Shown: positions 2,050 through 64,000 of the stretch, in pieces
Position numbering within the stretch: position 1 is the first letter of the stretch
Layout of the letters: each line of letters starts with the position of its first letter
Source: Squalus acanthias
Taxonomy: Eukaryota
Length of the DNA stretch: 64,000 nucleotides
Direction: 5' to 3'
Assembly (NCBI GenBank): GCA_030390025.1
Contig: CM059431.1
Location: forward strand, 149,670,001-149,734,000
The notes under the pieces: model-generated
What the model was told of the DNA's origin: nothing
Database searches by the model: none
The model's input: only the letters and a program-made list of their open reading frames with translations
Program-made: the position numbers and the translations under genes

Positions 2050-3626
2050 GAACAGGAGTAGGCCAATCAGCCCCCTCGAGCCTGTTACTATAGGAACAGG
2101 AGGCGGCCAATCAGCACCCTGGAGTCTGTTAATATAGGAACAGGAAGGGGCCATTCAGCCACACTCGAGCCTGTTACATTGGAACAGGAAGAGTCCCATT
2201 CATCCCTCGAGCCTGTAACACAGGAACAGGAGGAGGCCATTCAGCCCCTCGAGCGCATTACACAGCAAAAGGAGGAGGCCCATTCAGATACTCGAACCTG
2301 TTGCCTAGGAATAAGAGTAGGTCCATTCAGTCCATTACACAGGAACAAGAGGAGGCCCATTCAGACCCTCGAGCCCGTTACACAGGAAGAGGAGGAGGCC
2401 ATTCAGCCCCTCGAGCTCGTTTTACAGGAACAGGAGGTGGCCATTCAGCCCCACTCGAGCCTGTTACTAAAGGAACAGAAGGAGGCCATTCAGACCCTCG
2501 AGCCTGTTACACAGGAACAGCTGGCCATTCTGCCCCTCGAGCCCGATACACAGGAACAGGAGGAGGCCCATTCAGCCCCTCAAGCCTGTTACTCAGGAAC
2601 AGGAGGAGGCCGTTCAGCACATGGAGCCCGTTACACAGGAGCAGGAGGATACCCTTTCAGCCCTTCGAGCCTTTTCCATTGGAACAGGAGGAGGCCATTC
2701 AGCCCCATGAACCCGTTACACAGGAACAGGAGGAGGCTATTCAGCCCCTCGAGCCCAATACACAGGAACAGGAGGAGGCACAATCAGCCCCTCGAGACAG
2801 TTACACAGGAACAGGTGGACATTCAGCCCCTCGAGCCTGTTACACAGGAACAGGAGGAGGCCCATTCAGCACCTCGAGCCTGTTACACAGTAACAGGAGG
2901 AGGCCCATTCAGCTCCTCAAGCCTATTACACAGGAACAGGAGTAGGCACATTCAGCCCCTCGAGCCTGTTACACAGGAACAGGAGGAGGCCATTCAGCCC
3001 CTCGAGCAAGTTACACAGGAACAGGAGTAGGCCATTCAGCCTCTCGAACCTGTTACACAGGAAAAGGAAGAGGCAATTCAGCGCCTCGAGCCCGTTACAC
3101 AGGAATAGGAGGAGGCCATTCAGCCCCTCGAGCCCATTACAGAGTAGTAGGAGGAGGCCATTCAGCCCCTCGAGCCCGTTACACAGGAACAGGAGGAGGC
3201 CATTCAGTCCCTCAAGCCTGTTACACAGGAACAGGAGTAGGCCCATTTAGTCCCTCGAGCCTATTACACAGGAACAGGAGGTGGCGATTCAGCCCTCTAG
3301 CCCTTTCCACAGCAACAGGAGTGGGACATTCAGCACCGCAAAACTGTTACACAGGAACAGGAGGAGGCCATTCAGCCCCTCGAGCCTGTTACACAGAAAC
3401 AGTAGTATGCCATTCAGCCGCTCGAAACTGTTACACAAGAAAAGGAGGAGGCCATTCAGTCGCTCGAGCTCGTTACACAGGTTTAGGAGGAGGCCATTCA
3501 GCCCCTCCTGCCCGTTATACAGGAATAGGAGGAGGCCATTCAGCCCCTCGAGCCCGTTTCACAGTCACAGGAGGAGGCGATTCAGCCCCTCGAGCCTGTT
3601 CCGTCATTCAGTGAGATTCTGGCTGA
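2050..3626 (-). repeat. 42-bp tandem array derived from the CR1/HE1 3'-terminal sequence
   Basis: Unit AGGAACAGGAGGAGGCCATTCAGCCCCTCGAGCCTGTTACAC, which gives a 14-aa periodicity in the ORFs. It matches the CR1 3' end at 35758-35795 (AGGAGCAGGAGTAGGCCATTCGGCCCCTCGAGC). The last unit runs on into further CR1 3'-UTR-like sequence (cattcagtgagattctggctgat). Confidence 0.9.
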
Positions 3627-50684: not shown

Positions 50685-53600
50685 AGTCCCAACATCAGGA
50701 CCCCTTTCAAAGAGAGCGTCTTCCCATTAGGAACCCCGTTTTAAAGAGGGAGTCTCACCATCAGCGACCCCTTTTAAAGAGGGTGGTTCAGCAACAGGGA
50801 CACATTTTATAGAGAGAGTCTCCCCATTAGGAATCCCTTTTAAAGAGAGATTCTCGCCATCAGATAACCTTTTAATTATGGAGTCATTCTATCGTTTAAA
50901 TAGGGAGTCTCACACTTGGGGACCTATTTTAAAGAGAGAATCTTTCTATCAAGGTCCCCTTTTAAAGATGGAGTCTTTCCATCAGGGACCCCTTTTAAAG
51001 AGACCCGTCCTTTTAGGGACATCGCTTAAAGAGAGCATCTGACCATCAGGTACCCTTTTTAAAGAGGGAGTCTCCCCATTAGGGATTTCTTTTATATAGG
51101 GATTATCGTCATCAGAGATCATTTTAAAGAGGGAGTCTTTCTATCAGGGAGCACATTTAAAGAAGTAGTCTGACTATCAGGAACCCATTTTAAAGAGGGA
51201 TTCTCACCATCAGCGAAACCTTTTAAAGAGTGTGTCTCAGCATCAGGGACCCATTTTAATGACAGTGTCTCTCGATCAGTGACCCACTTTAAGAGGCACG
51301 AGCACCATAAGGGACCACTTTTAAAGAGGGAATCTCACCATGAGGGATCAATTTGAAAGAGGGAGTCTCACCATCAGGGACCCATTTTAAAGAGAGAGAC
51401 TCCCCATGAGGGATACATTTTTAAGAGGGAGTCTAACCATCAGCGACCCCTTTTAAAGAGAGTGTCTCACCATCAGAGATCAATTTTAACGATAGAGTCT
51501 CACACTCGGGGACCCCTTTAAAATATGGAGTCTCACCAGCAGGGTTGACTTTTAAAGAGAATGTCACTCATTCAGAGTCCCTTTTAAAGAGGGATTCTTG
51601 CTATCAGGGAGCCCTTTTAAGAGAAAGTCCCACTTTCGGGGACCCATTTTAAGGAGAGAGTCTTTCCATCACGTGCCCCTTTTAAAGAGAGAGTCTTTTT
51701 TATCAGGGACACATTTTAAAAAGGGAGTATCTCCATAAGGGACACTTTTAAAGTGAGTGTGTCTCCATCAGGGACAACATTTAAAGAGGGGGTCTCACCA
51801 AGATGGACCCCTTTTAAAGAGGGAGTCTCACAATCAGGAAACCCTTTTAAAGAGGGAGTCTCCCCATCAGTGACTCCTTTTAAAGAGGGAGGCTCACCAT
51901 CAGGGGCCTGTTTTAAATTGGGAGTCTCACCATCAGGGACCCCTTTTAAAGAGGGAATCTCACCATCAGGGATCAATTTGAAAGAGGGAGTCTCACCATC
52001 AAGGACCCATTTTAAAGAGAGAGTCTCCCCATTAGGGACCCATTTTAATGACAGTGTCTCTCGACCAGTTAATCATTTTAAAGAGGCACTAGCACCATCA
52101 GGGACCACTTTTAAAGAGGGAATCTCACCATCAGGGATCAATTTGAAAGAGGGAGTCTCACCATCAGGGACCCATGTTAAAGAGAGAGTCTCCCCATTAG
52201 CAATACCTTTTTAAGAGGGAGTCTAACCATCAGCGACCAATTTTAAAGAGGGTGTCTCACCATCAGGGATCAATTTGAAAGAGGGAGTCTCACCATCAGG
52301 GACTCATGTTAAAGAGAGAGTCTCCCTTTAGTGATGCCTTTTTAAGAGGGAGTCTAACCATCAGCGACCACTTTTAAAGAGGGTGTCTCAGCATTAGGGA
52401 CACATTTTAAAGAGACTGTTTCACCATCAGAGACCCTTTTAAAGAGGGATTCTTTATATCAGGGAGCCATTTTAAATAGTGAGTCACTCCATTGGGGAAC
52501 CATTTTAAAGAGAGTTTCTTTCTATCAGGAATCCCTTTTAAAGAGGGAGTCTTTCTATCAGGGACCCATTTGAAAGAGAATCTTCCTATTCGGGACACCG
52601 TTTAAAGAGAGAGTCTCTCCATCAGGGTTCCCTTTTAAAGAGAGAGTGTCAAAATCAAGGACACATTTTAAAGAGGTAGTCTCCCCATCAAGGAACCCTT
52701 TTAAAAAAGTCTCACGATCAGGGACCCCTTTTAAAGCGGGAGTCTTACCATCAGGGACCCTTTTACTGAGAGTGTCTCAACATTAGGGACACCTTTTATA
52801 GAGAGTGTAACCATCATTGACGCCTTTTAAAGAGAGAGTCTCACCATCAGAAATCAATTTGAACGATAGAGTCTCACACTCAGGGACCCCTTCAAAATAT
52901 GGAGTCTCACAAGCAGGGTCGACTTTTAAAGAGAGTGTCACACCTTCAGAGTCCCTTTTAAAGATGGAGTCTTGCTATCAGGGACCTCTTTTAAGAGGAA
53001 GTCCCACTCTCGGGGACCCATTTTAAAGAGAAAGTCTCTCCATCACGTGCCCCTTTTGAAGAGAGAGTATTTTTATCAGCGACACCTTATAAAAAGGGAG
53101 TGTCTCCATCAGGGACACTTTTAAAGAGGGGGCTCACCATCATGGACCCCTTTAAAAGAGGAAGTCTCACCATCAGGAAACCCTTTTAAAGAGGGAGTCA
53201 CCCCATCAGTGACTCCTTTTAAAGAGGGAGGCTCACCATCAGGGGCCCCTTTTAAAGAGGGAATCTCACCATCAGGGATCAATTTGAAAGAGGCAGTCTC
53301 ACCATCAGAGACCCATTTTAAAGAGAGAGTCTCCCCATTAGCGATACCTTTTTAAGAGGGAGTCTAACCATCAGCGACCACTTTTAAAGAGGGTGTCTCA
53401 CCATCAGAGACCCTTTTAAAGAGGGATTCTTTATATCAGGGAGCCATTTTAAATAGGGAGTCACTCCATTGGGGAACCTTTTTAAAGAGAATTTCTTTCT
53501 ATCAGTAATCCGTTTTAAAGAGGGAGTCTTTCTATCAGGGGCACATTTGAAAGTGAATCTTCCTATTAGAGCCACCGTTTAAAGAGAGAGTCTCTCTATC

Positions 53601-56600
53601 AGGGATCCCTTTTAAAGAGAGAGTCTTTTTATCAGGGACACCTTTTAAGAAGGGAGTGTCTCCATCAGGGTCACTTTTAAAGAGGGTGTGTCTCCATCAG
53701 GGACAACATTTAAAGAGGGGGTCTCACCATCATGGACCCCTTTAAAAAAGGGAGTCTCACCATCAGGAAACCGTTTCAAAGAGGGAGTCTCCCCATCAGT
53801 GACCCCTTTTAAACAGGGAGGCTCACCATCAGGGGCCCCTTTTAAATTGGGAGTTTCATCATCAGGGACCCCTTTTAAAGAGGGAATCTCACCATCAGGG
53901 ATAAATTTGAAATTGGGAGTCTCACCATCAAGGACCCATTTTAAAGAGAGAGTCTCCCCATTAGGGACCCATTTTAATGACAGTGTCTCTCGACCACTGA
54001 ATCATTTTAAAGAGGCACGAGCACCATCAGGGATCAATTTTAAAGAGGGAATCTCACCATCAGGGTTCAATTTGAAAGAGGGAGTCTCACCATCAAGGAC
54101 CCATTTTAAAGAGAGAGTCTCCCCATTAGCGATACCTTTTTAAGAGGGAGTCTAACCATCAGCGACCACTTTTAAAGTGTGTGTCTCACCATCAGAGACC
54201 CTTTTAAAGAGGGATTCCTTATATCAGGGAGCCATTTTCAATAGGGAGTCACTCCATTGGGGAACCTTTTTAAAGATAATTTCTTTCTATCAGTAATCCC
54301 TTTTAAAGAGGGAGTCTTTCTATAAGGGGCACATTTGAAAGAGAATCTTCCTATTAGGGCCACCGTTTAAAGAGAGAGTCTCTCTATCAGGGATCCCTTT
54401 TAAAGAGAGAGTCTTTTTATCAGGGACACCTTTTAAAAAGGGACTGTCTCCATCAGGGTCACTTTTAAAGAGGGTGTGTCTCCATCAGGGACAACATTTA
54501 AAGAGGGGGTCTCACCATCATGGACCCCTTTAAAAAAGGGAGTCTCACCATCAGGAAACCGTTTTAAAGAGGGAGTCTCCCCATCAGTGACCCCTTTTAA
54601 ACAGGGAGGCTCACCATCAGGGGCCCCTTTTAAATTGGGAGTTTCATCATCAGGGACCCCTTTTAAAGAGGGAGTCTCACCATCAAGGACCCATTTTAAA
54701 GAGAGAGTCTCCCCATTAGGGACCCATTTTAATGACAGTGTCTCTCGACCACTGAATCATTTTAAAGAGGCACTAGCACCACCAGGGATCACTTTTAAAG
54801 AGGGAATCTCACCATCAGGGATCAATTTGAAAGAGGGAGTCTCACCATCAAGGACCCATTTTAAAGTGAGAGTCTCCCCATTAGGGACCAATTTTAATGA
54901 CAGTGTCTCTCGACCAGTGAATCATTTTAAAGAGGCACTAGCACCATCCGGGATCACTTTTAAAGAGGGAACCTCACCATCAGGGATCAATTTGAAAGAG
55001 GGAGTCTCACCATCAAGGACTCATTTTAAAGAGAGAGTCTCCCCATTAGGGACCCATTTTAATGACAGTGTCTCTCGACCAGTTAATCATTTTAAAGAGG
55101 CACTAGCACCATCAGGGATCACTTTTAAAGAGGGAATCTCACCATCAGGGATCAATTTGAAAGAGTGAGTCTCACCATCAGGGACCCATTTTAAAGAGAG
55201 AGTCTCCCCATTAGTGATGTCTTTTTAAGAGGGCGTCTAACCATCAGCGACCCCTTTTAAAGAGGGTGTCTGAGCATCAGGGACCCATTTTAAAGAGACT
55301 GTCTCACCATCAGAGACCCTTTTAAAGAGGGATTCTTTATATCCGGGAGCCATTTTAAATAGAGAGTCACTCCATTGGGGAACCATTTTAAAGAGAGTTT
55401 CTTTCTATCAGGAATCCTTTTTAAAGAGGGAGTCTTTCTATCAGGGACCCATTTGAAAGAGAATCTTCCTATTCGGGACACCGTTTAAAGAGAGAGTCTC
55501 TCCATCAGGGATCCCTTTTAAAGAGGGAGTGTCAAAATCAAGGACACATTTTAAAGAGGTAGTCTCCCCATCAAGGAACCCTTTTAAAAAAGTCTCACGA
55601 TCAGGGACCCCTTTTAAAGCGGGAGTCTTACCATCAGGGACCCTTTTACTGAGAGTGTCTCAACATTAGGGACACCTTTTATAGAGAGTGTAACCATCAT
55701 TGACGCCTTTTAAAGAGAGAGTCTCACCATCAGAAATCAATTTGAACGATACAATCTCACACTCAGGGACCCCTTCAAAATATGGAGTCTCACAAGCAGG
55801 GTCGACTTTTAAAGAGAGTGTCACACCTTCAGAGTCCCTTTTAAAGATGGAGTCTTGCTATCAGGGACCTCTTTTAAGAGGAAGTCCCACTCTCGGGGAC
55901 CCATTTTAAAGAGAGAGTCTCTCCATCACGTGCCCCTTTGAAGAGAGAGTATTTTTATCAGCGACACCTTATAAAAAGGGAGTGTCTCCATCAGGGACAC
56001 TTTTAAAGAGGGGGCTCACCATCATGGACCCCTTTAAAAGAGGAAGTCTCACCATCAGGAAACCCTTTTAAAGAGGGAGTCTCCCCATCAGTGACTCCTT
56101 TTAAAGAGGGAGGCTCACCATCAGGGGCCCCTTTTAAAGAGGGAATCTCACCATCAGGGACCCCTTTTAAGAGGGAATCTCACCATCAGGGATCAATTTG
56201 AAAGAGGGAGTCTCACCAGCAGAGACCCATTTTAAAGACAGAGTCTCTCCATTAGCGATACCTTTTTAAGAGGGAGTCTAACCATCAGCGACCCATTTTA
56301 AAGAGGTCGTCTCACCATCAGAGACCATTTTAAAGAGGGATTCTTTATATCAGGGAGCCATTTTAAATAGGGAGTCACTCCATTGGGGAACCATTTTAAA
56401 GAGCATTTCTTTCTAGCAGGAATCCCGTTTAAAGAGGGAGTCTTTCTATCAGGGATCCCTTTTAAAGAGAGAGTCTTTTTATCAAGGACACCTTTTAAAA
56501 AGGGAGTGTCTCCATCAGGGACACTTTTAAAGAGGGGTACTCACCATCCTGGACCCCTTTTAAAGAGTGAGGCTCACCATCAGGGAGCCCTTTTAAAGAG

Positions 56601-58563
56601 GGAGTCTCACCCTCGTGCACCAATTTTAAAGATAGAGTCTATCTCTCAGGGAACCCTTTTGAAGAGGACGTATTTCAATCCGTGAACCCTGTTAAAGATA
56701 AAATCTCTCCATTAGGGAGCCCTTTCAAAGAGCGAGTCTAACCATCAGTGACCACTTTTAAATAGAGAGTCTTTATATCAGGTACCGCTATTAAAGAGGG
56801 AGTCTCACACTCGGATAGCATTTTAAAGCGGGAGTCTTTCTATCAGGGAGCCCTTTTAAGGAGTGAGTCTCACCATCTGGGATCACTTTTAAAGAGGGAG
56901 TCGTTCTATCAGGGAGGCCTTTTAAAGGAAGTCTCCCCATCTGAGACCCTTTTAAAGAGGGAGTCTTTCTATCAGGGAGCCCGTTTAAAGAGGAAATGTC
57001 ACCATCAGGGACCCTTTTAAAGAGGGAGATTTTTTAAGGAAGACTTTTTAAAGAGTGTCTTCCACTCAAGGAAACCTTTTAAAGAGAGCGTCTCCCACTC
57101 AGGTACCCTTTTTAAAGAGGAAATTTCGCCATCAGGGACATCTTTTAACTAGAGTGTCTCCCCATCAGGGATCCCTATTAAAGAGGAAGTCTCAATATCA
57201 GAGACACATTTTAAAGAGTGTGTGTCACCATCAGGGATCCCCTTTTAATGAGATAATCTCTCCATCCGGGCCCCCTTTTAAAGAGAGAGTCTCACCATCA
57301 GTGACCCATTTTAAAGAGGTTGTCTCACCATCAGCGACACCTTTTAAAGAGAGGTTCTCACAATCAGGGATCCCTTTTAAAGAGAGAGTCTCGCCATCAG
57401 TCACGCATTTTAAAATGGAGTCAGCATCAGGGATGACTTTTAAAGAGGGTGTCTCCCCATCAGGGACCTTATAAAAGAGGTGTCTCAGCATCAGGGACAC
57501 CTTTTAAAGATGGAGTCCCACCATCAGGGAGCACTTTTAACGAGTGAGTCTCACCATCAGGGACCTCCTTTAAAGAGAGAATCTCAGCCTCAGGGACACC
57601 CTCTTTAAAAGGGGTCCGTGATTGAGACAGTCCCTCATTATAAGGGGTCCCAAATGGTGAGAATCTCTCTTTAAAATATTTCCCTAAGCGGACGATCTTC
57701 TTTAAAAGGGGTCCCTGATAGAACGACTGCCTCTTTCAAAGGGTCTCAGATGGTGAGACTCCCTCTTTAAAAGGGGTACCTGATATAAAGACTCCCTTTA
57801 AAAGGGCAACCTCATGGAGAGAATCCCCCTTTAAAAGGGATCCCTGATGGCGAGACTCCTCTTTAAAAGGTGTCTCACCATCGGGGACACCTTTTAAAGA
57901 GGCAGTCTCACCATCAGGGACCCCTTTTAAAGAGGGAGTCTCACCATCAGGGACCCATTTTAAAAAGTGGATGTCACCATCAGGGACCCCTTTTAAAGAG
58001 AGAGTCTTTGTCTCAGGGACCCTTTTTAAAGAGGGCGTCTTTCTATCAGGGAACGCTTTTAAAGAGAGATTCTCCCCACTGGGGACACCTTTTAAATAAA
58101 GATTCTCGCCATCAGGATCCCATTTTAAAGAGGTTGTTTCAGCGTCACGGACGCCTTTTAAAGAGGGAGTCTCACCAGCAGGGATACATTTTAAAGAGAG
58201 AGTCTCGCCATCAGGGACCACTTTTGAAGAGAAAGTATTTCTATCAAGGACCCCTCTTAAAAAGGGAGTCTTTCATTCAGGGACCCCTTTTAAAGAGAAT
58301 CTTCCAATTAGGGACACCCTTTAAAGAGTGAGTCTAACCTCAGGGATACCTTTAAAGAGGCAGTCTTTCTATCAGGGTGCACTTTTAAACACAGTGTCTC
58401 ACCATCAGGGACAACTTTTAAAAAGAGTGTATCGCCATCATTGACGCCTTTTAAACAGGGAGTCTCAGCATCAGGTACCACTTTTAAAGAATGAGACTCA
58501 CATCAGGGACCCCTTTTAAAGAGAGAGTCTCACTATCAGTGACCCCTTTTAAAGAGAGAGACT
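50685..58563. repeat. 33-bp satellite A, reverse orientation, with nested duplications and a short inverted block at ~57597-57870
   Basis: Offsets of 2883 (52407/55290, 52817/55700) and 788 (53688/54476). The strand flips at ~57597 and flips back at ~57865. Confidence 0.95.
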
Positions 58564-60038
58564 TGCAGGGGTTGGTGGTTTGTGTCAGCTTCACCTCTGA
58601 CTTCTGAGCGCTTCGAATCGCTCCCACACCCTTGGTTCTAGACCTTGGACTTATTTGGGGGTTGTGACAAAAGTGCAGCAGACAACTGGTTTTGATGCAA
58701 GAACTTTGATCTTTATTCAAGAGAGTAAAACACAACACTACAATCTTAACACTCTAAAAGTCGGGAACACTTCGGTACAAACGAGGGAAATAACATTAGA
58801 AGAATGCTTCATCAATCCCAATCCCACTTCCCTAGCTAGGCTGGACTCCAGAGAAATGGGGATGATACTCACCAGAATCCTTGACATTTGGGCTTGTTCG
58901 TGGTATTGGGGTTGTTGGTTGGTGTCTGCCGTACTCTGTACGCGGTAGAGGAGTTCAAATGCGAAGCTGGTCAGTCTTCGCGAGTCCGCTGATGCGGAAG
59001 GGTGTGTATTGGATCTATCAGGTGAGTACCCACTTGTCTTTGCTTTAGAAGTAGGGTTTAGAGTTTTTTAAGGGAAAATCTTACCCAGGGGTAAGTCAGG
59101 AGTAGATTATAAAGTGGAAACTTTGCGGATCTTCGATTTTTCTTCGAGTGTGTTTTCTTTGGTCGCGATGGTCCAATATTCGTACTTGGTGTTCGTTACT
59201 TTTTTTCGTGAGGGCCTTGTTGCCGTGAGGTGTCCGATGATCACTGAGGCGGTCGTTCTGGTTTCTTCATGTTTCGGCCTACGTTGCTGGATCGTCTGGC
59301 CTTCGAGCTGTCGACCTTCTGGCTGGACACGGAACGCTGAACGATGGTGTTTTAGAACTGTGTTGCGGAGAATGACTCCATGGCTGTCTTCTTATTCTTC
59401 CTTCCTCTTCTTCTTTTTTCAGTTTGAGAACGGCCTTCAATTATACCAATTGAAGCTCCCTTATCTGCGAGCCAAATCAGATCCCGGTCATTGTTAGATT
59501 TTGGCAGGCTCGTCAATGGTAACTTGTTTGTTAAGATGTGAAGTTGTTTTGGGATGGCCCCATCCTGTCGATTTTCCACTTAATAGTAGTTGACTGTCCT
59601 CATGTTTTGGGTTATCTTGACTGGGCCTGGGATTTATATAGAGTAGGCCGAAGTAATCTGTTTTATGCATGTTTTAATGTGCTCCGTAAATTGAGGTTGA
59701 GACTCGTTTACATCGGGTGTATTGTAAGGATGTTAATGTCTGATAGGGGCCGATTTAACTCCCAGCGAGGTCATGCGGTTCCCCAGAAAGTTTCCACTAG
59801 CTCCAATACACAAACTTTCTCTGCAGAGGTTGAACCCACCTCCTTTCACAGCTTTTTCTCCCTTACAAGTCCAGACATGTCGTTTAAAATACCAAATCTT
59901 TCTTTTTGCTCAATATGTGCTTCGCTTAGGCCCCATGCACTTCACCACCCTGTATTAGTTAGAAAAGTGTCCAAAGTATTTTTTCTTAGTGTCTGTCTTC
60001 GAGTTTTAGGGGGATCTGTGAATTTTGAGAATCTTACA
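58564..60038 (-). mobile_element. LTR of the same family as 49178-50684, inverted, without matching TSD
   Basis: Minus strand reads TGTAAGATTCTCAAAATTCACAGATCCCC ... CCCCTGCA and is colinear with the solo LTR. Flanks are GACT (satellite) and GCAT (env). Confidence 0.88.
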
Positions 60039-62474
60039 GCATCTTAAAGCTGAAGAATGTGACATAGTTTTGAAGGTTGATAATGATTTTCCTGACAGTG
60101 AGGTGAACAGTGGAGGGTTCAGGAATGGGGACAATCCATTCCTGGGCCACTTGAACTTCTGCTTCGGCTCTAAAGCAGAAACTGCTGTCACTTACCGGAC
60201 ACCAGATGTGCAAACCATGCTGGTAGTGGGGCGCACTTGTGGTGACACAATATATCCCACCCCGTATGAATGCGAACTGTGGGGCAACATGGCCTTGTGC
60301 CAATACCTTCATGATACAGTTGACAGGTCGTGCGCCAACAGCTTTAAACCCGTACTGTGGTCTACAATAGGCATTCAAGTGCTCGGGACACAGTATTATT
60401 TGTGCACCCTGTCTGCGACTCCCGGAGAGGTCAGTGCCTGCCAAAGTGTGCTCCCACTTCATGAATTAATGTGGGACCACTGCGAAGCGGACGTGTGCAC
60501 CCCCTTGAATGATCCCAATGTTCTCAACCCTGTATACCGGTGCGGGCCTGGCTGTCCCACCCATGACCGGCATCCTCACTACTATCCCCATGATAGAGTG
60601 ATTGGAACGCCCACAATCTACTGGAACAGGGTAGGCTTCAGATGGTAGGCGGAGCTGACACGGGCTCAGCGAATTGCTAAACGGGTGGAGGCCTGCGAAG
60701 TGCTTGTTGCTGATACAGGAGGGGACTAAACCTTGTTTTAAATCCTCCACGTTGCTACGGCCCTCGCCCTTCAAACATGCCACATGTAGCACACACACCT
60801 AATTCTGTGCAGCCTGCTCCGAAACATTCCTATCGCAACACGGTGGCATAGTGGTTAGCACTGGTGCCTCACAGCGCCAGGGACCCGGGTTCGAATCTGA
60901 CCTTGGGTGACTGTCTGTGTGGAGTTTGCACATTCTCCCCGTGTCTGCATGGGTTTCCTCCGGGTGCTCCGGTTTCCTCCCACAGTCCAAAAATGTGCAG
61001 GTTAGGTTGATTTGGCTATGATAAAAAAATTGACCCTTAGTGTTAGGGGGGGATTGAATATGTGGGGTTATGGGGATAGGATGGGATATGTTGGGGGGAA
61101 TTAAATGCGTGGGGTTGCGGGGGTAGGGTGGGATGTGTGTACTGTGGGGATTGGGGCAGGGACAGGGTGCTGGATTTGGATGATCAGCCATGATCGTGTT
61201 GAATGGTGGAGCAGGCTCGACGGGCCGAATGGCCTACTCCTGCTCCTAGATTCTATGTTTCCGTATGAGTGCATTTACTGTTTTTGCGTTTCTCTCTAGC
61301 TCAGCAATGATCTCCTTTAAATGGACTGTCATAGCTTGGTCCTCGTGTAGCTCTGAGCCTACCACTTTAGTTTTTTCCGTTAGGATTTTTCATGGTTTGT
61401 TTTTTAGACCATCTATCTGTGTTTGCAGTTCTATATTGTCCAGGCTATTTATTGCAGAGGATCCTGTATTGTAGAAAGTGAAAATATCGTTCCAGGTCCC
61501 TGTCCGTTGACTCCCTGCGCTCATAGTGTGCTCTGCGTTTAATGTGTACAGCTCTGCATTGTCTATGTTGGCAAAGTCGAATTCGTAGAATTTCCTAAAC
61601 ATTTATTACAGCAGGGCCTGGTATAGCTGTTCTGTCTCCTCGGGACACCATTCAGATAAGTGTACTTCGGTAACGTTTGGGATAACTGAAGCTAATGCAT
61701 AGTGTACACCCTGGTATTGTACCTTTTCGTTCGGCACTAGCACAAGCCCATTCTCTGGTCCCTTGTTGGTGGTAGGACACCTCTCTATCACTGCCCGTGA
61801 TGTCATGGTCGTGGGCAGGGGCTATCGGGTGCGTGCTACGAGTTCGGTGGCGTTGACTGGGATCGGGGAGAGTGCGAGCGCGCACGCATGCAGGCTAGTA
61901 TCCCACCCCATCCACTTCCTGGTATCTTGCCATTGTCTGGAGAAGATGATGGCTATGCCTGTGGGGCAGGCTCTCTATGATCCCCACATACAGACATAGA
62001 TTCCCTTTTCCACCACTAATTCCAACACACACACACTCCCCCTGGGGTCCCTGTGATCGTCCGGTAGTTGTCGTTCCCAGTCAGCTGTATTGTCCCCTAT
62101 ATCCATGCTCAGCATCCTGAGCCACCACCACCTATCCAGGGGAATCCGTCCGTTGCATGTGAGAAACACACGTTTCCCTTCAGTGACGCTGACACTTGTA
62201 GCAACGACCTGTACCCTGGGGCACGGGATGGAGGCCTCCACGTAGGTGAACCCGGTCTGGCAGGAGTATTTTGCAGAGTTAGACCCTAGCCACCCTGGCC
62301 ACCTTCCGTCATGGAAGTAAATAGCCAGCAACTCCACACCTGGTTTGCCACCCCCAGCGGTAACGATCGGCGCTCTCTCTCTCCCGAGCACCCATAAATG
62401 TGGGAGTCCTCCACGTCACCTCGGTCACCGATGCTCACCCCTACCAGGGCGAGCAGGAGCAGAACCTTCCTCAT
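60039..62474 (-). pseudogene. env: Lokiretrovirus-like env: signal peptide, Ig-like domain(s), Mononegavirales-F-like class I fusion protein; SINE-interrupted, TM region missing
   Basis: MRKVLLLLALVGVSIG signal. VSVTEGKRVFLTC..WWW..EKGIYVC. Decayed cleavage site SQRT|G followed by fusion-peptide-like TWNDIFTFYNTGSSAINSLD and a heptad. Then VVRMPV..VYRVENIG, TDLSG..IILCPE and IYCVTT. Fragments share one frame across stops (62391-61265 and 60834-60034). Confidence 0.75.
60835..61262 (+). mobile_element. HE1-like tRNA-derived V-SINE inserted antisense in env
   Basis: A box TGGCATAGTGG, B box GGTTCGAATC, V-domain, and CR1-type tail GGAGCAGGCTCGACGGGCCGAATGGCCTACTCCTGCTCCT..TTCTATG. Confidence 0.92.
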
Positions 62475-62828: not shown

Positions 62829-64000
62829 CTATATAATACTACCCCCATTGGTGTGGCTGCTGAGTCCCTGTCCTGTCCTCTGGGTTCCTCGCAGCCTGAG
62901 GCCGCAGGCTTGTGAAACCCTCTTCTTAGAATGATCCCTGACTTTGCGTATCCCTTTTCGGGATGCGGCCCTTGCTGGGCTGAACCATTGATGTGCTGGT
63001 GGCCACGGTAGTTTTGGCTGTGGTGTGCGAGGAGACCTTCTCAGGACTCTGGCTACTGGGGGCTCGGCGTCCGAGTCCCACGTAATTGGTGGGGTAGCCC
63101 CTCCGGTGACACAAACCACTGCCCCTAACGGTGCGGTCTGTGAATCTGCCACAGTCGCTAGCTGTGGATCTCTACCTTTTGGGTGGTTCGTCCTTGCTGG
63201 CTGTTCCCCTTTGGGGTTAAAGAGCTTACACTGTATAATATGCAATCACTTCGTGTGGCGGGGCATTTTTATGGCGTAGAACATGGGGCTTGCCTTGTCG
63301 ACTATGCTGTAAGGACCCATGTACAGTGCTTCGAAACTCCATACCTGGGCAACATTTCTAACTATCACCTGATCCCCTATCTCCCAATCATGTTGCTTGC
63401 GGGGTTCTAGCAGCAGTCGGTTACTCCGATGCTGTTTTCCCATGTTGCTAGCAGCCTGCCAGTGAACCTGTTTAAGATGTTCAAACAGATTCCTGACGAA
63501 GCTGTCTCGGTTCACCTCTCAGCACCGGGGCTAGCACATGGGTGGGTACCACATAATACTACCAGTCATGAGCTGGTGTCGGGAATATTCCATGATTTTT
63601 GACTGGCTGGCTCGGATCCCCATTAGGACCAACGATAAGACTTCTACCCACTTCTTCGGTGAGTCTCCCGTTTCCTTCCATAGCCTTTTCTTAATGGTAT
63701 GGTTTAAATGCTCCACAGGACCCGATGACTGCGGGTTGTGGGCGATGTGTCATTTCCCTTCAATGCCGAATAACCTGAGCGTCTCTTGCAAGGCCTGCCC
63801 GGTTAAATGACTTCACTGGTCGGACTCCACATACTGCGGTAGTCCCCATCGTGAGAACACTTCCCTGAACAGGATCCTAGCCGTACCCAGTGCGGTAGCA
63901 GTACAGCATGGGAACGCTTCCACCCACATTGAGAACACATCCACCAGGACTAGGGAGTACTTAAAGCCTCCATGGGCGGTGGGTAGGGGCCCAATGTAAT
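62829..64000 (-). pseudogene. pol: Integrase core, GPY/F C-terminal domain and low-complexity tail of an LTR retroelement (lokiretrovirus-like pol end); continues beyond the window
   Basis: IGPLPTAHGGFKYSLVLVDVFSMWVEAFP..WGLPQYVESDQ..HIAHNPQSSGPVEHLNHTIK, then WEIGDQVIVR..YMGPYSIV. Confidence 0.88.

Follow-up and report, generated by a model that had tools for sequence, protein, structure and literature searches.

How does a retroviral envelope protein come to carry an immunoglobulin (Ig)-like domain in front of a fusogen of the paramyxovirus type, and what would such a domain be for? The question is raised by a stretch of 64,000 nucleotides of the Squalus acanthias genome (hereafter the window; contig CM059431.1, positions 149,670,001 to 149,734,000), which contains on its minus strand the 3' half of a provirus. 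This provirus is old and decayed, with a broken envelope gene (env), and belongs to a high-copy endogenous retrovirus (ERV) family. Taken as a whole, the best explanation, and one that we regard as probable, is that env of this family encodes a fusogen of the type of the paramyxo- and pneumovirus fusion protein (F) equipped with a V-like Ig module that would be receptor-binding and host-derived, in a virus of an epsilon-like lineage. A first-pass annotation of the window, made from its letters alone, had proposed Ig-like domain(s) ahead of an F-like fusogen in one open reading frame. The frames of better copies and the fold match described below bear out the fusogen after the Ig-like part; one Ig-like domain stands, whereas the possible second one does not.

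The arrangement of the parts can be read from other copies of the family. A 1.2-kb env query was compared with the 3.7-Gb genome (40 copies scored among 1850 candidates; with a second query, 40 among 2638). At 7 of 19 other loci a single open frame extends from before the initial Met across the Ig-like part and as far as residue 495 or further, and the gene can be read from the Ig-like domain to the tail at other loci (655 amino acids (aa) in L041 and 628 aa in L050). Pieced together from the better copies, the composite env has about 790 residues, in the order signal peptide, N-terminal segment, Ig-like domain (residues 84-175), T/P-rich linker, a segment like the F2 subunit of F (238-326) and the motif RQRR (327-330). 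After RQRR come a weakly hydrophobic stretch and helical heptads; the Cys-rich beta region is next, and a second heptad repeat leads on to the hydrophobic anchor and the tail. The extension before the fusogen measures about 220 residues, and its core is a single V-type Ig-like domain. RQRR occurs once in the better copies, with helices after it; by eye, the weak hydrophobicity just past the cleavage site belongs to the shark family, and the stretch is more typical in frog and bamboo-shark relatives. In the L050 frame the heptad windows start at residues 492-526 and the hydrophobic windows at 576-581. Four copies fetched as a more divergent subfamily proved to share about 90% identity with L003 too, L003 being one of the better copies in this genome.

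In the window the parts of env lie as follows, residues being numbered as in protein P0001.
62474 to 60041, minus strand: env as a whole, broken by three indels that shift the frame and by eight in-frame stops, with 426 bp inserted and 609 bp deleted
62427 to 62474, minus strand: env start and signal peptide, residues 1-16, aligned to the L003 frame
62224 to 62426, minus strand: N-terminal segment, residues 17-83, without a confident fold, containing a 2-base insertion near 62383
61966 to 62223, minus strand: Ig-like domain of V type, residues 84-175, from sub-cut-off Pfam matches, PDB profile matches and the domain model
61780 to 61965, minus strand: T/P-rich linker, residues 176-237, of low model confidence, with a stop at 61822-61824
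61513 to 61779, minus strand: F2-like segment, residues 238-326, two long strands and two helices, with stops at 61606-61608 and 61603-61605
61501 to 61512, minus strand: position of the furin-type cleavage site, SQRT in the window and RQRR in other copies
60643 to 61500, minus strand: fusion-peptide-like stretch and helical region like heptad repeat A (HRA) and domain III, residues 331-475, with stops at 61390-61392 and 60799-60801
60835 to 61260, no strand assigned: interspersed repeat like a short interspersed element (SINE), inserted in env and no part of the gene, absent from L003
60205 to 60642, minus strand: Cys-rich, beta-rich region, residues 476-621, like F domains I and II, with a stop at 60466-60468
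60041 to 60204, minus strand: last piece of the ectodomain kept, by comparison with L003

The window copy is 90.8% identical to L003 over 62600-61261 and 89.7% over 60834-60041, and its eight in-frame stops lie between 62018 and 60466. The Ig-like domain is broken by an 11-bp deletion at ~62076, a 7-bp deletion at ~62007 and stops at 62016-62018 and 61975-61977, and the HRA/domain-III-like region is interrupted by the 426-bp insertion. A deletion at ~60040 takes away 609 bp that L003 has: env loses its second heptad repeat, membrane anchor and tail, and about 280 bp past the gene are gone too. Much of what the annotation had read in this decayed copy was confirmed: the signal peptide (62474-62427, a Met and then a hydrophobic run), the frameshift in a GA run (the 2-base insertion near 62383), the T/P-rich linker after the Ig-like part, the decayed furin-like site (RHRR in a skate relative), the heptad region followed by the Cys-rich region after the fusion-peptide-like stretch, and the inserted repeat, for which 40 scored copies out of 5791 candidates are 96-97% identical and nearly all at full repeat length. 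No tRNA-like head was found in the insertion by ARAGORN. The single frame expected after the GA run did not survive, in view of the two further frameshifting deletions of 11 and 7 bp; since these two deletions flank it, part of the Ig-like string quoted in the annotation stood in the wrong frame, the marks on either side being native. The native Ig pattern of the better copies is a closer match to Ig domains than the window reading.

The assignment of the fusogen is based on structure prediction. The 621-residue L003 frame was modelled with AlphaFold2 on the basis of 57 aligned sequences. The model has a predicted local distance difference test (pLDDT) of 85-91 in the F2-like segment and 68-92 in the Cys-rich beta region, the head reaching 85-92, and below 50 for residues 171-245; helices are modelled at 344-371, 392-412 and 417-444. 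The Foldseek search of the PDB returned 217 matches at E ≤ 0.001, and among the matches listed all are F of paramyxo- or pneumoviruses, the best at E 4.8e-9. By VIA-align, 218 of 999 chains reached Z ≥ 8 and the best 50 (Z 12.8 to 10.9) are all F, headed by Langya F with 322 residues aligned at a root-mean-square deviation (rmsd) of 8.7 and Z 12.8. Model residues 238-621 align with F residues ~20-430, and 238-244 with ~20-33 of mature F; because the mature N-terminus of F corresponds to residue ~238, residues 17-237 can be regarded as an N-terminal extension. In BFVD, 44 matches at E ≤ 0.001 are mostly glycoproteins of further negative-strand RNA viruses (lispi-, arli- and chu-related), paramyxo/pneumovirus F0 and baculovirus F, and they include the Env of two walleye viruses, walleye epidermal hyperplasia virus 1 (WEHV-1, 3.8e-8) and walleye dermal sarcoma virus (WDSV, 3.7e-7), at probability 1.00 and low template modelling (TM) scores of 0.10-0.27. 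The closest ESM Atlas clusters (range 0.94 to 0.91) are Baculo_F/Gypsy env at 0.94 and Fusion_gly at 0.92. From residue 238 on, the protein is predicted to fold like prefusion paramyxo/pneumovirus F, with domains I-III and the F2 strand and helix, and the likeness seen in the model is one of overall architecture, not of close superposition. As in F-type precursors, a signal peptide and an internal basic site are followed by a fusion-peptide-like and heptad region, and in the L050 frame by a second heptad repeat, an anchor and a short tail, which are deleted in the window copy.

The Ig pattern noticed in the window (B-strand Cys, a WWW run and GIYVC) is real. In P0001 the marks of a V-set domain are Cys103/106, Trp115-117 and Cys167, the latter in a Q-G-I-Y-V-C strand. 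A profile of eight N-terminal domains (four of the shark/skate type, bamboo shark, two frogs and one other) gave 890 matches at E ≤ 10 among PDB sequences, and the best 60 all belong to the Ig superfamily (IgSF), with pIgR (6e-6), JAM-A (9e-5) and TCR mu (1e-4) at the top. The alignments are domain-long, and the two Cys, the Trp and the G-x-Y-x-C strand line up; the JAM-A match, at 9e-5, covers profile positions 4-96 in a single stretch. When the bamboo-shark and frog domains are searched alone, all matches are to V domains of antibodies or butyrophilins (best E 0.0036 and 0.0041), and the bamboo-shark protein is named Ig-like domain-containing protein in UniRef. The model of the domain alone is all-beta, with eight strands. 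Its ten best Foldseek rows, of TM 0.42-0.51, are V domains as judged from titles and chain letters, and in the wide VIA-align search of 48,161 representatives Z was at least 5 for 52 chains and nowhere as high as 8, the best 50 chains having the Ig fold, mostly of V type (TREM-1 7.1, CD300a 6.6, TREM2 6.5, NKp44 6.2). Other searches gave less: the Pfam V-set scored 14.4 for P0042 (cut-off 26); with phmmer, the window Ig piece and P0001 found nothing below E 0.14 among PDB sequences, Basigin (0.87 to 1.3) being the sole Ig-type lead; and residues 17-225 reached just 0.84 to 0.87 in the ESM Atlas, with Ig families among the matches, which is no more than a lead. On these comparisons the core, residues 84-175, behaves as a V-type Ig domain, the fold evidence being weaker than the sequence evidence. 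Sequence and fold point to the same subgroup of V domains, which is a lead to the donor family and not a finding. The second Ig domain suggested upstream is not upheld: its second Cys is Ser in L003, the skate, the sawshark and other relatives, the segment has about 55 residues, and residues 1-88 have a pLDDT below 50 with no strands modelled.

The layout reaches beyond Squalus. Skate and sawshark proteins 60-73% identical to env were found by a word-based search, and 50 proteins passed E ≤ 0.001 in a profile search of 1.84 billion representatives; for 17 of these, E was 1e-30 or lower. Names were looked up for 20 of the 50, and five of the six proteins named by the word-based search are also among the 50. 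The named relatives come from six shark genera, one skate, three frog genera and the coelacanth, two Rhincodon (whale shark) proteins being members of the env family; among these same 20 and six, none from a ray-finned fish was seen. In the full-length relatives, of 673-749 aa, the match to the profile begins only near position 224, and their N-terminal parts have diverged beyond the reach of HMMER. By eye, a V-like pattern is visible at the start of four of the five. The same order of parts occurs in gene models of the skate, the bamboo shark (739 aa) and frogs (723 and 677 aa), and by their predicted proteins divergent relatives in sharks, skate and frogs share the env layout. Several proteins annotated as host ones in the sawshark and other species (P0006, P0007, P0014 and P0034) are chimeric gene models that join env pieces to zinc-finger, Niban, cadherin or F-box sequences. 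The whale-shark model P0033 joins a coiled-coil-like stretch straight to the env N-terminus, which could be a spliced env message or an artefact of the model.

Whether the Ig-like part worked together with the fusogen was approached through variation among 52 copies aligned to the L003 frame, singletons being counted apart from variants shared by at least three copies. Singletons stem mostly from decay after insertion, and shared variants mostly from the period in which the family replicated. The ratios of non-synonymous to synonymous variants (pN/pS) were:
N-terminus, residues 1-80: singletons 0.94, shared 0.28
Ig-like, residues 81-175: singletons 1.00, shared 0.27
linker plus F2-like, residues 176-335: singletons 0.72, shared 0.35
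F1-like, residues 336-621: singletons 1.00, shared 0.27
Purifying selection acted on the Ig-like region as strongly as on the fusogen during the spread of the family. Because its shared-variant ratio of ~0.27 equals that of the fusogen, the Ig-like domain can be considered a working part of Env.

Against this combined picture of a V-type domain joined to an F-type fusogen several results have to be set. A complete env frame exists at none of the 30 loci that span the whole gene. The full env model has a mean pLDDT of 61, and its TM-scores to F are just 0.23-0.42, with an rmsd of 6-9 Å or more. At the sequence level, Pfam Fusion_gly (PF00523) was absent at E ≤ 1 for P0001 and at E ≤ 0.1 for 17 relatives; a whole-Env profile found no F protein among PDB sequences, its seven matches at E ≤ 10 being led by a coronavirus spike stem; and no Pfam family passed its cut-off for the env part of the window pieces, the L003 frame or the 57 family members. 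For the Ig-like domain, the Pfam Ig_3 scores are 17.3 bits for the window piece (E 0.0071), 13.8 for P0001 and 17.0 for P0013, with a cut-off of 30. Its model alone has a mean pLDDT of 58 and gave no Foldseek match at E ≤ 0.001 (best E 6e-3), and the TREM-1 match (Z 7.1, rmsd 3.0, 91 residues aligned) is middling by the scale of the tool. One full-length relative, of 673 aa from Mustelus, shows no Ig pattern at its N-terminus by eye. The pN/pS count, finally, is a simple one that ignores transition bias and CpG effects, and some shared variants possibly come from segmental duplication, which would push the ratios towards 1.

Other Pfam observations on the family can be given here. The above-cut-off matches in family members lie in the host parts of chimeric models (zinc fingers); PF00523 is not among the 25 families listed of 83 for the 57 members; and Baculo_F (PF12259) was matched in one chimeric relative, below cut-off, at E 0.0011. 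Weak matches of env to Tricorn_C1 and LRS4 were set aside as chance.

The lineage of the virus can be approached through pol. Pol contains a reverse transcriptase (RT), a tether-like RNase H, a retroviral RNase H and an integrase, and Gag a CCHC knuckle (zf-CCHC, E 5.1e-6). The best PDB match of RT is that of murine leukaemia virus (MLV, 5.6e-48), followed by foamy virus (9e-33) and Ty3 (8e-27), and that of the integrase is prototype foamy virus (PFV, 1.8e-30). A foamy-like ERV, raised by this last match, was set aside on the CCHC knuckle of Gag, the RT scores and the short, cleavable-type signal at the start of Env. The closest pol proteins are those of frogs (40-45% identity), then those of fish and amniote class-I-like ERVs (~30-35%). 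A quick maximum-likelihood tree of RT and RNase H, rooted on 12 gypsy rows and built without lokiretroviral, epsilon or foamy references, placed a shark plus frog clade (8 rows; Shimodaira-Hasegawa-like approximate likelihood ratio test (SH-aLRT) 92) as sister to 42 class-I-like ERVs (99). In Han 2015, elephant-shark ERV lineages were grouped with walleye and amphibian epsilonretroviruses. In view of this tree, of the Env fold match to the walleye viruses and of the placement by Han, we lean towards a class-I-related, epsilon-like lineage rather than a lokiretrovirus. The choice of references tempers the lean, and so does a by-eye reading of the RT motifs, some of which are as in canonical, MLV-type enzymes and some as in lokiretrovirus RTs.

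The annotation had called the element lokiretrovirus-like, that is, a member of the lineage sister to canonical retroviruses, with an F-type Env that gained Ig domains. We judge this unlikely. The F-type Env, the Pol with dual RNase H and, by eye, some RT motifs in common with lokiretrovirus RTs speak for it. In the portions available of the lokiretrovirus report (Wang and Han, Mol Biol Evol 2021, PMC7947760), the Env of Loki-Xtr resembles the present one by eye in the start of the F2-like segment, a motif past the first heptad and the spacing of four Cys, and lokiretroviruses are known from frogs and coelacanth, which are also hosts of the present env family. Given these several short features shared by eye, the two Env families are probably distant kin. 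The same portions (PMC7947760) also supply most of what speaks against a lokiretrovirus. There, the Env of Loki-Xtr and Loki-Rca has a short N-terminal subunit and no Ig domain, and Loki Env matches PF00523 at 2.2e-7, which the present Env does not; five pol motifs of the family and its frog relatives are absent from the supplement with the Loki Pol consensuses, and a sixth is found in it only in MuLV and FLV; by eye, the present RT keeps an LPQGF-type motif and a segment before YVDD that are both missing from the Loki rows. In the genome table of the report Rhincodon and Callorhinchus are unmarked, unlike Xenopus and Latimeria, the mark being taken to mean 'present', and the whale shark, unmarked there, carries the present env family. 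The label does not fit an N-terminal subunit of ~310 residues past the signal peptide, as against ~110 in Loki-Xtr, nor an Env without a PF00523 match and an RT that falls beside class-I-like ERVs in the Loki-free tree; the epsilon-like lineage is the one towards which we lean.

What the domain would do can be considered next. By its fold match, cleavage site, heptads and anchor, the protein would work as a trimeric class I fusogen of F type. Cleavage by furin at RQRR would prime Env, and refolding, towards a six-helix bundle expected from the fold match alone, would drive fusion. The Ig-like domain, placed on the N-terminal subunit, would be the receptor-binding module that triggers this refolding, in parallel with the extra domain of foamy virus Env. 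Since the V-like domain is the sole folded add-on in the N-terminal subunit, receptor binding is its most economical role, and by analogy we give that role about an even chance. The main alternative, which we hold to be quite unlikely, is that the domain is an immune decoy or shield, or a ligand of a host immune receptor. Its closest neighbours in structure and sequence are indeed V domains of immune receptors (pIgR, CD300, TREM, NKp44), and its pN/pS of 0.27 is no higher than that of the fusogen, unlike many receptor-binding domains, which evolve fast. Yet the domain sits where other class I proteins with an F-like core have their receptor-binding module (the receptor-binding domain (RBD) of foamy viruses, on the N-terminal subunit, in the portions available of PMC11468914), and no other candidate binding domain was seen in the modelled N-terminal subunit. 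Loki Env, as far as the available portions of PMC7947760 describe it, and paramyxovirus F are also without such a part; the Ig-like part is thus something extra on a fusogen that would still need a means of binding, and a receptor-binding module is the role that we prefer.

As for its origin, an ancient transfer from a host gene of the pIgR/CD300/TREM type would have supplied the Ig-like domain. Host capture is plausible, and if it took place it would be old, since divergent shark and frog relatives also start with a V-like domain. A very unlikely alternative is that the N-terminal beta domain is a viral sandwich that merely resembles Ig, with no common descent with host IgSF and no capture. 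No host protein passed E 0.001 for profile positions 1-223 among the 1.84 billion representatives; the matches to these positions that were examined (all but P0051) are env-family proteins or chimeric gene models; and the sub-cut-off Pfam Ig matches and the low confidence of the domain model would agree with such a sandwich. Against it stand the canonical V-set marks (B- and F-strand Cys, C-strand Trp and acidic-x-G-x-Y-x-C), which are present in the sequence, the domain-long profile matches of 6e-6 to 1e-4 with those marks aligned, and the V-domain matches that three divergent family members give independently. That the Ig-like stretch is an unrelated host exon or insertion in the window copy, its single frame being a read-through artefact, is barely credible: nothing beyond the broken state of that copy suggests it, and it is contradicted by the Ig-like part lying in the fusogen frame at the 7 of 19 other loci, by its presence in skate, sawshark and other sharks and by the purifying selection on it. 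Within the preferred reading of capture, a fuller scenario is possible but on balance doubtful, namely that an ancient retrovirus of early jawed vertebrates acquired the ligand-binding V domain of a host immune receptor of the pIgR/CD300/TREM kind and fused it to the N-terminus of an F-type fusogen for receptor binding, and that an Env lineage distinct from those of lokiretroviruses and foamy viruses then spread in sharks, skates, coelacanth and frogs. If true, such a lineage may also link the unusual Env of the exogenous epsilonretroviruses of fish with the F proteins.

Two further parts of the provirus lie in the window.
62832 to 63998, minus strand: integrase core and C-terminal region at the 3' side of pol, split over three frames and cut by the end of the window
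58567 to 58913, minus strand: 3' end of the 3' long terminal repeat (LTR), with an AATAAA signal; its counterpart at the opposite end of the provirus is L051 7807-8154
The integrase that the annotation had placed upstream of env is there, on the minus strand (rve, E 6.6e-6 at 63816-63998), with a weak SH3_Tf2-1 match in Pfam at 63249-63518, and in other copies the same region of pol is an open frame of 440 aa (rve, E 6.4e-15). The two provirus ends, 13 kb apart, are alike over 349 bp at 88.8%, the one stretch that the comparison found in common; because they are only that similar, the insertion is old. A 33-bp satellite array of about 200 copies with 71% matches, at 52003-58560, ends within 7 bases of the 3' LTR, and at the opposite side of the provirus the 9 kb that follow the window contain no such satellite. 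In gag, the region ahead of the capsid part (L051 7060-7799) encodes long coiled-coil-like stretches.

Other copies of the family show rearrangements of their own. At 15 of 19 sampled env loci (L004-L013, L015, L016 and L018-L020, with the break at about position 3017 of each) env is truncated in the same way after residue ~495 and continues into about 1 kb of another repeat; at 12 of these 15 a long antisense open frame of up to 369 aa, with RT motifs of the long interspersed element (LINE) type, lies beyond the repeat. Many of the truncated loci are on contig C9 between 119 and 138 Mb, and it seems that an env-defective derivative was amplified, through duplication or retrotransposition. The same repeat also lies between RNase H and integrase of the window provirus (L051 2828-3787, just past the window), with 89.6% identity along 963 bp and oriented alike with respect to the element. 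In L053 1043-3700, on a single contig, an env frame closes with anchor and tail, and gag of another family copy comes about 1.7 kb further on, an arrangement that looks like two tandem proviruses, possibly with one common LTR.

An F-type Env in retroviruses is a recent finding, and how such an Env binds cells is largely open. The present family extends this type of Env to the ERVs of cartilaginous fish, and it provides an add-on that is recognisable and selectable, placed where a receptor-binding module is expected, and whose fold has ligands that can be searched for. A pol that does not look lokiretroviral bears on the origin of the F-type Env, which may have been acquired once, swapped between lineages or been ancestral. 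The first-pass annotation knew of no description of an Env that joins Ig and F, and none was found in the literature searched, in which subscription journals were mostly not included. The F of paramyxo- and pneumoviruses (hPIV3, Nipah, Langya, hMPV and respiratory syncytial virus (RSV)) has the same predicted fold as residues 238-621, an internal furin-type site and a large C-terminal head subunit; it differs in that it starts at present residue ~238, without an Ig-like extension, and it does not match at the sequence level by Pfam or PDB profile. Paramyxoviruses bind cells through a separate attachment protein.

The Env of WDSV and WEHV-1 matches the present model by predicted structure and is much longer (1159 and 1317 aa), no sequence similarity to the present Env being detected by HMMER in the representative library. 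Reviews describe the walleye virus Env as distinct from the gamma type and do not call it F-like, and no description of an F-like epsilonretrovirus Env was found in the mainly open literature searched; the fold match, if true, would assign the 'distinct' Env of the genus to a structural family. In the sources as available, F-type Env is in print for lokiretroviruses (by sequence, PMC7947760), foamy viruses (by cryo-EM, PMC11468914) and invertebrate errantiviruses. Lokiretrovirus hosts, in the available portions of PMC7947760, belong to five vertebrate classes, none of them cartilaginous. Their Env resembles the present one in being of F type, with signal peptide, basic site, fusion peptide, coiled coil and anchor, and differs, in Loki-Xtr and Loki-Rca, by an N-terminal subunit of ~110 residues and a classical hydrophobic fusion peptide, as against ~310 residues and a weakly hydrophobic stretch here (PMC7947760). 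Foamy virus Env, as described in the portions available of Fernandez et al. (Sci Adv 2024, PMC11468914), likewise has an F-like core (domains I-III) and an extra domain in its N-terminal subunit; that RBD, however, is continuous, has a fold of its own and stands behind a membrane-spanning leader peptide, whereas the present domain is Ig V-like. The nearest case of a host-type domain is Nectin3 of CrocERV31, for which the text available of Chong et al. (Retrovirology 2014, PMC4299795) describes an ERV with a host IgSF sequence at the env position and under purifying selection. There the host gene replaces env and is ~76% identical to its cellular counterpart (PMC4299795). In the present family, by contrast, the Ig-like domain has no close host match and is fused in frame before a complete fusogen.

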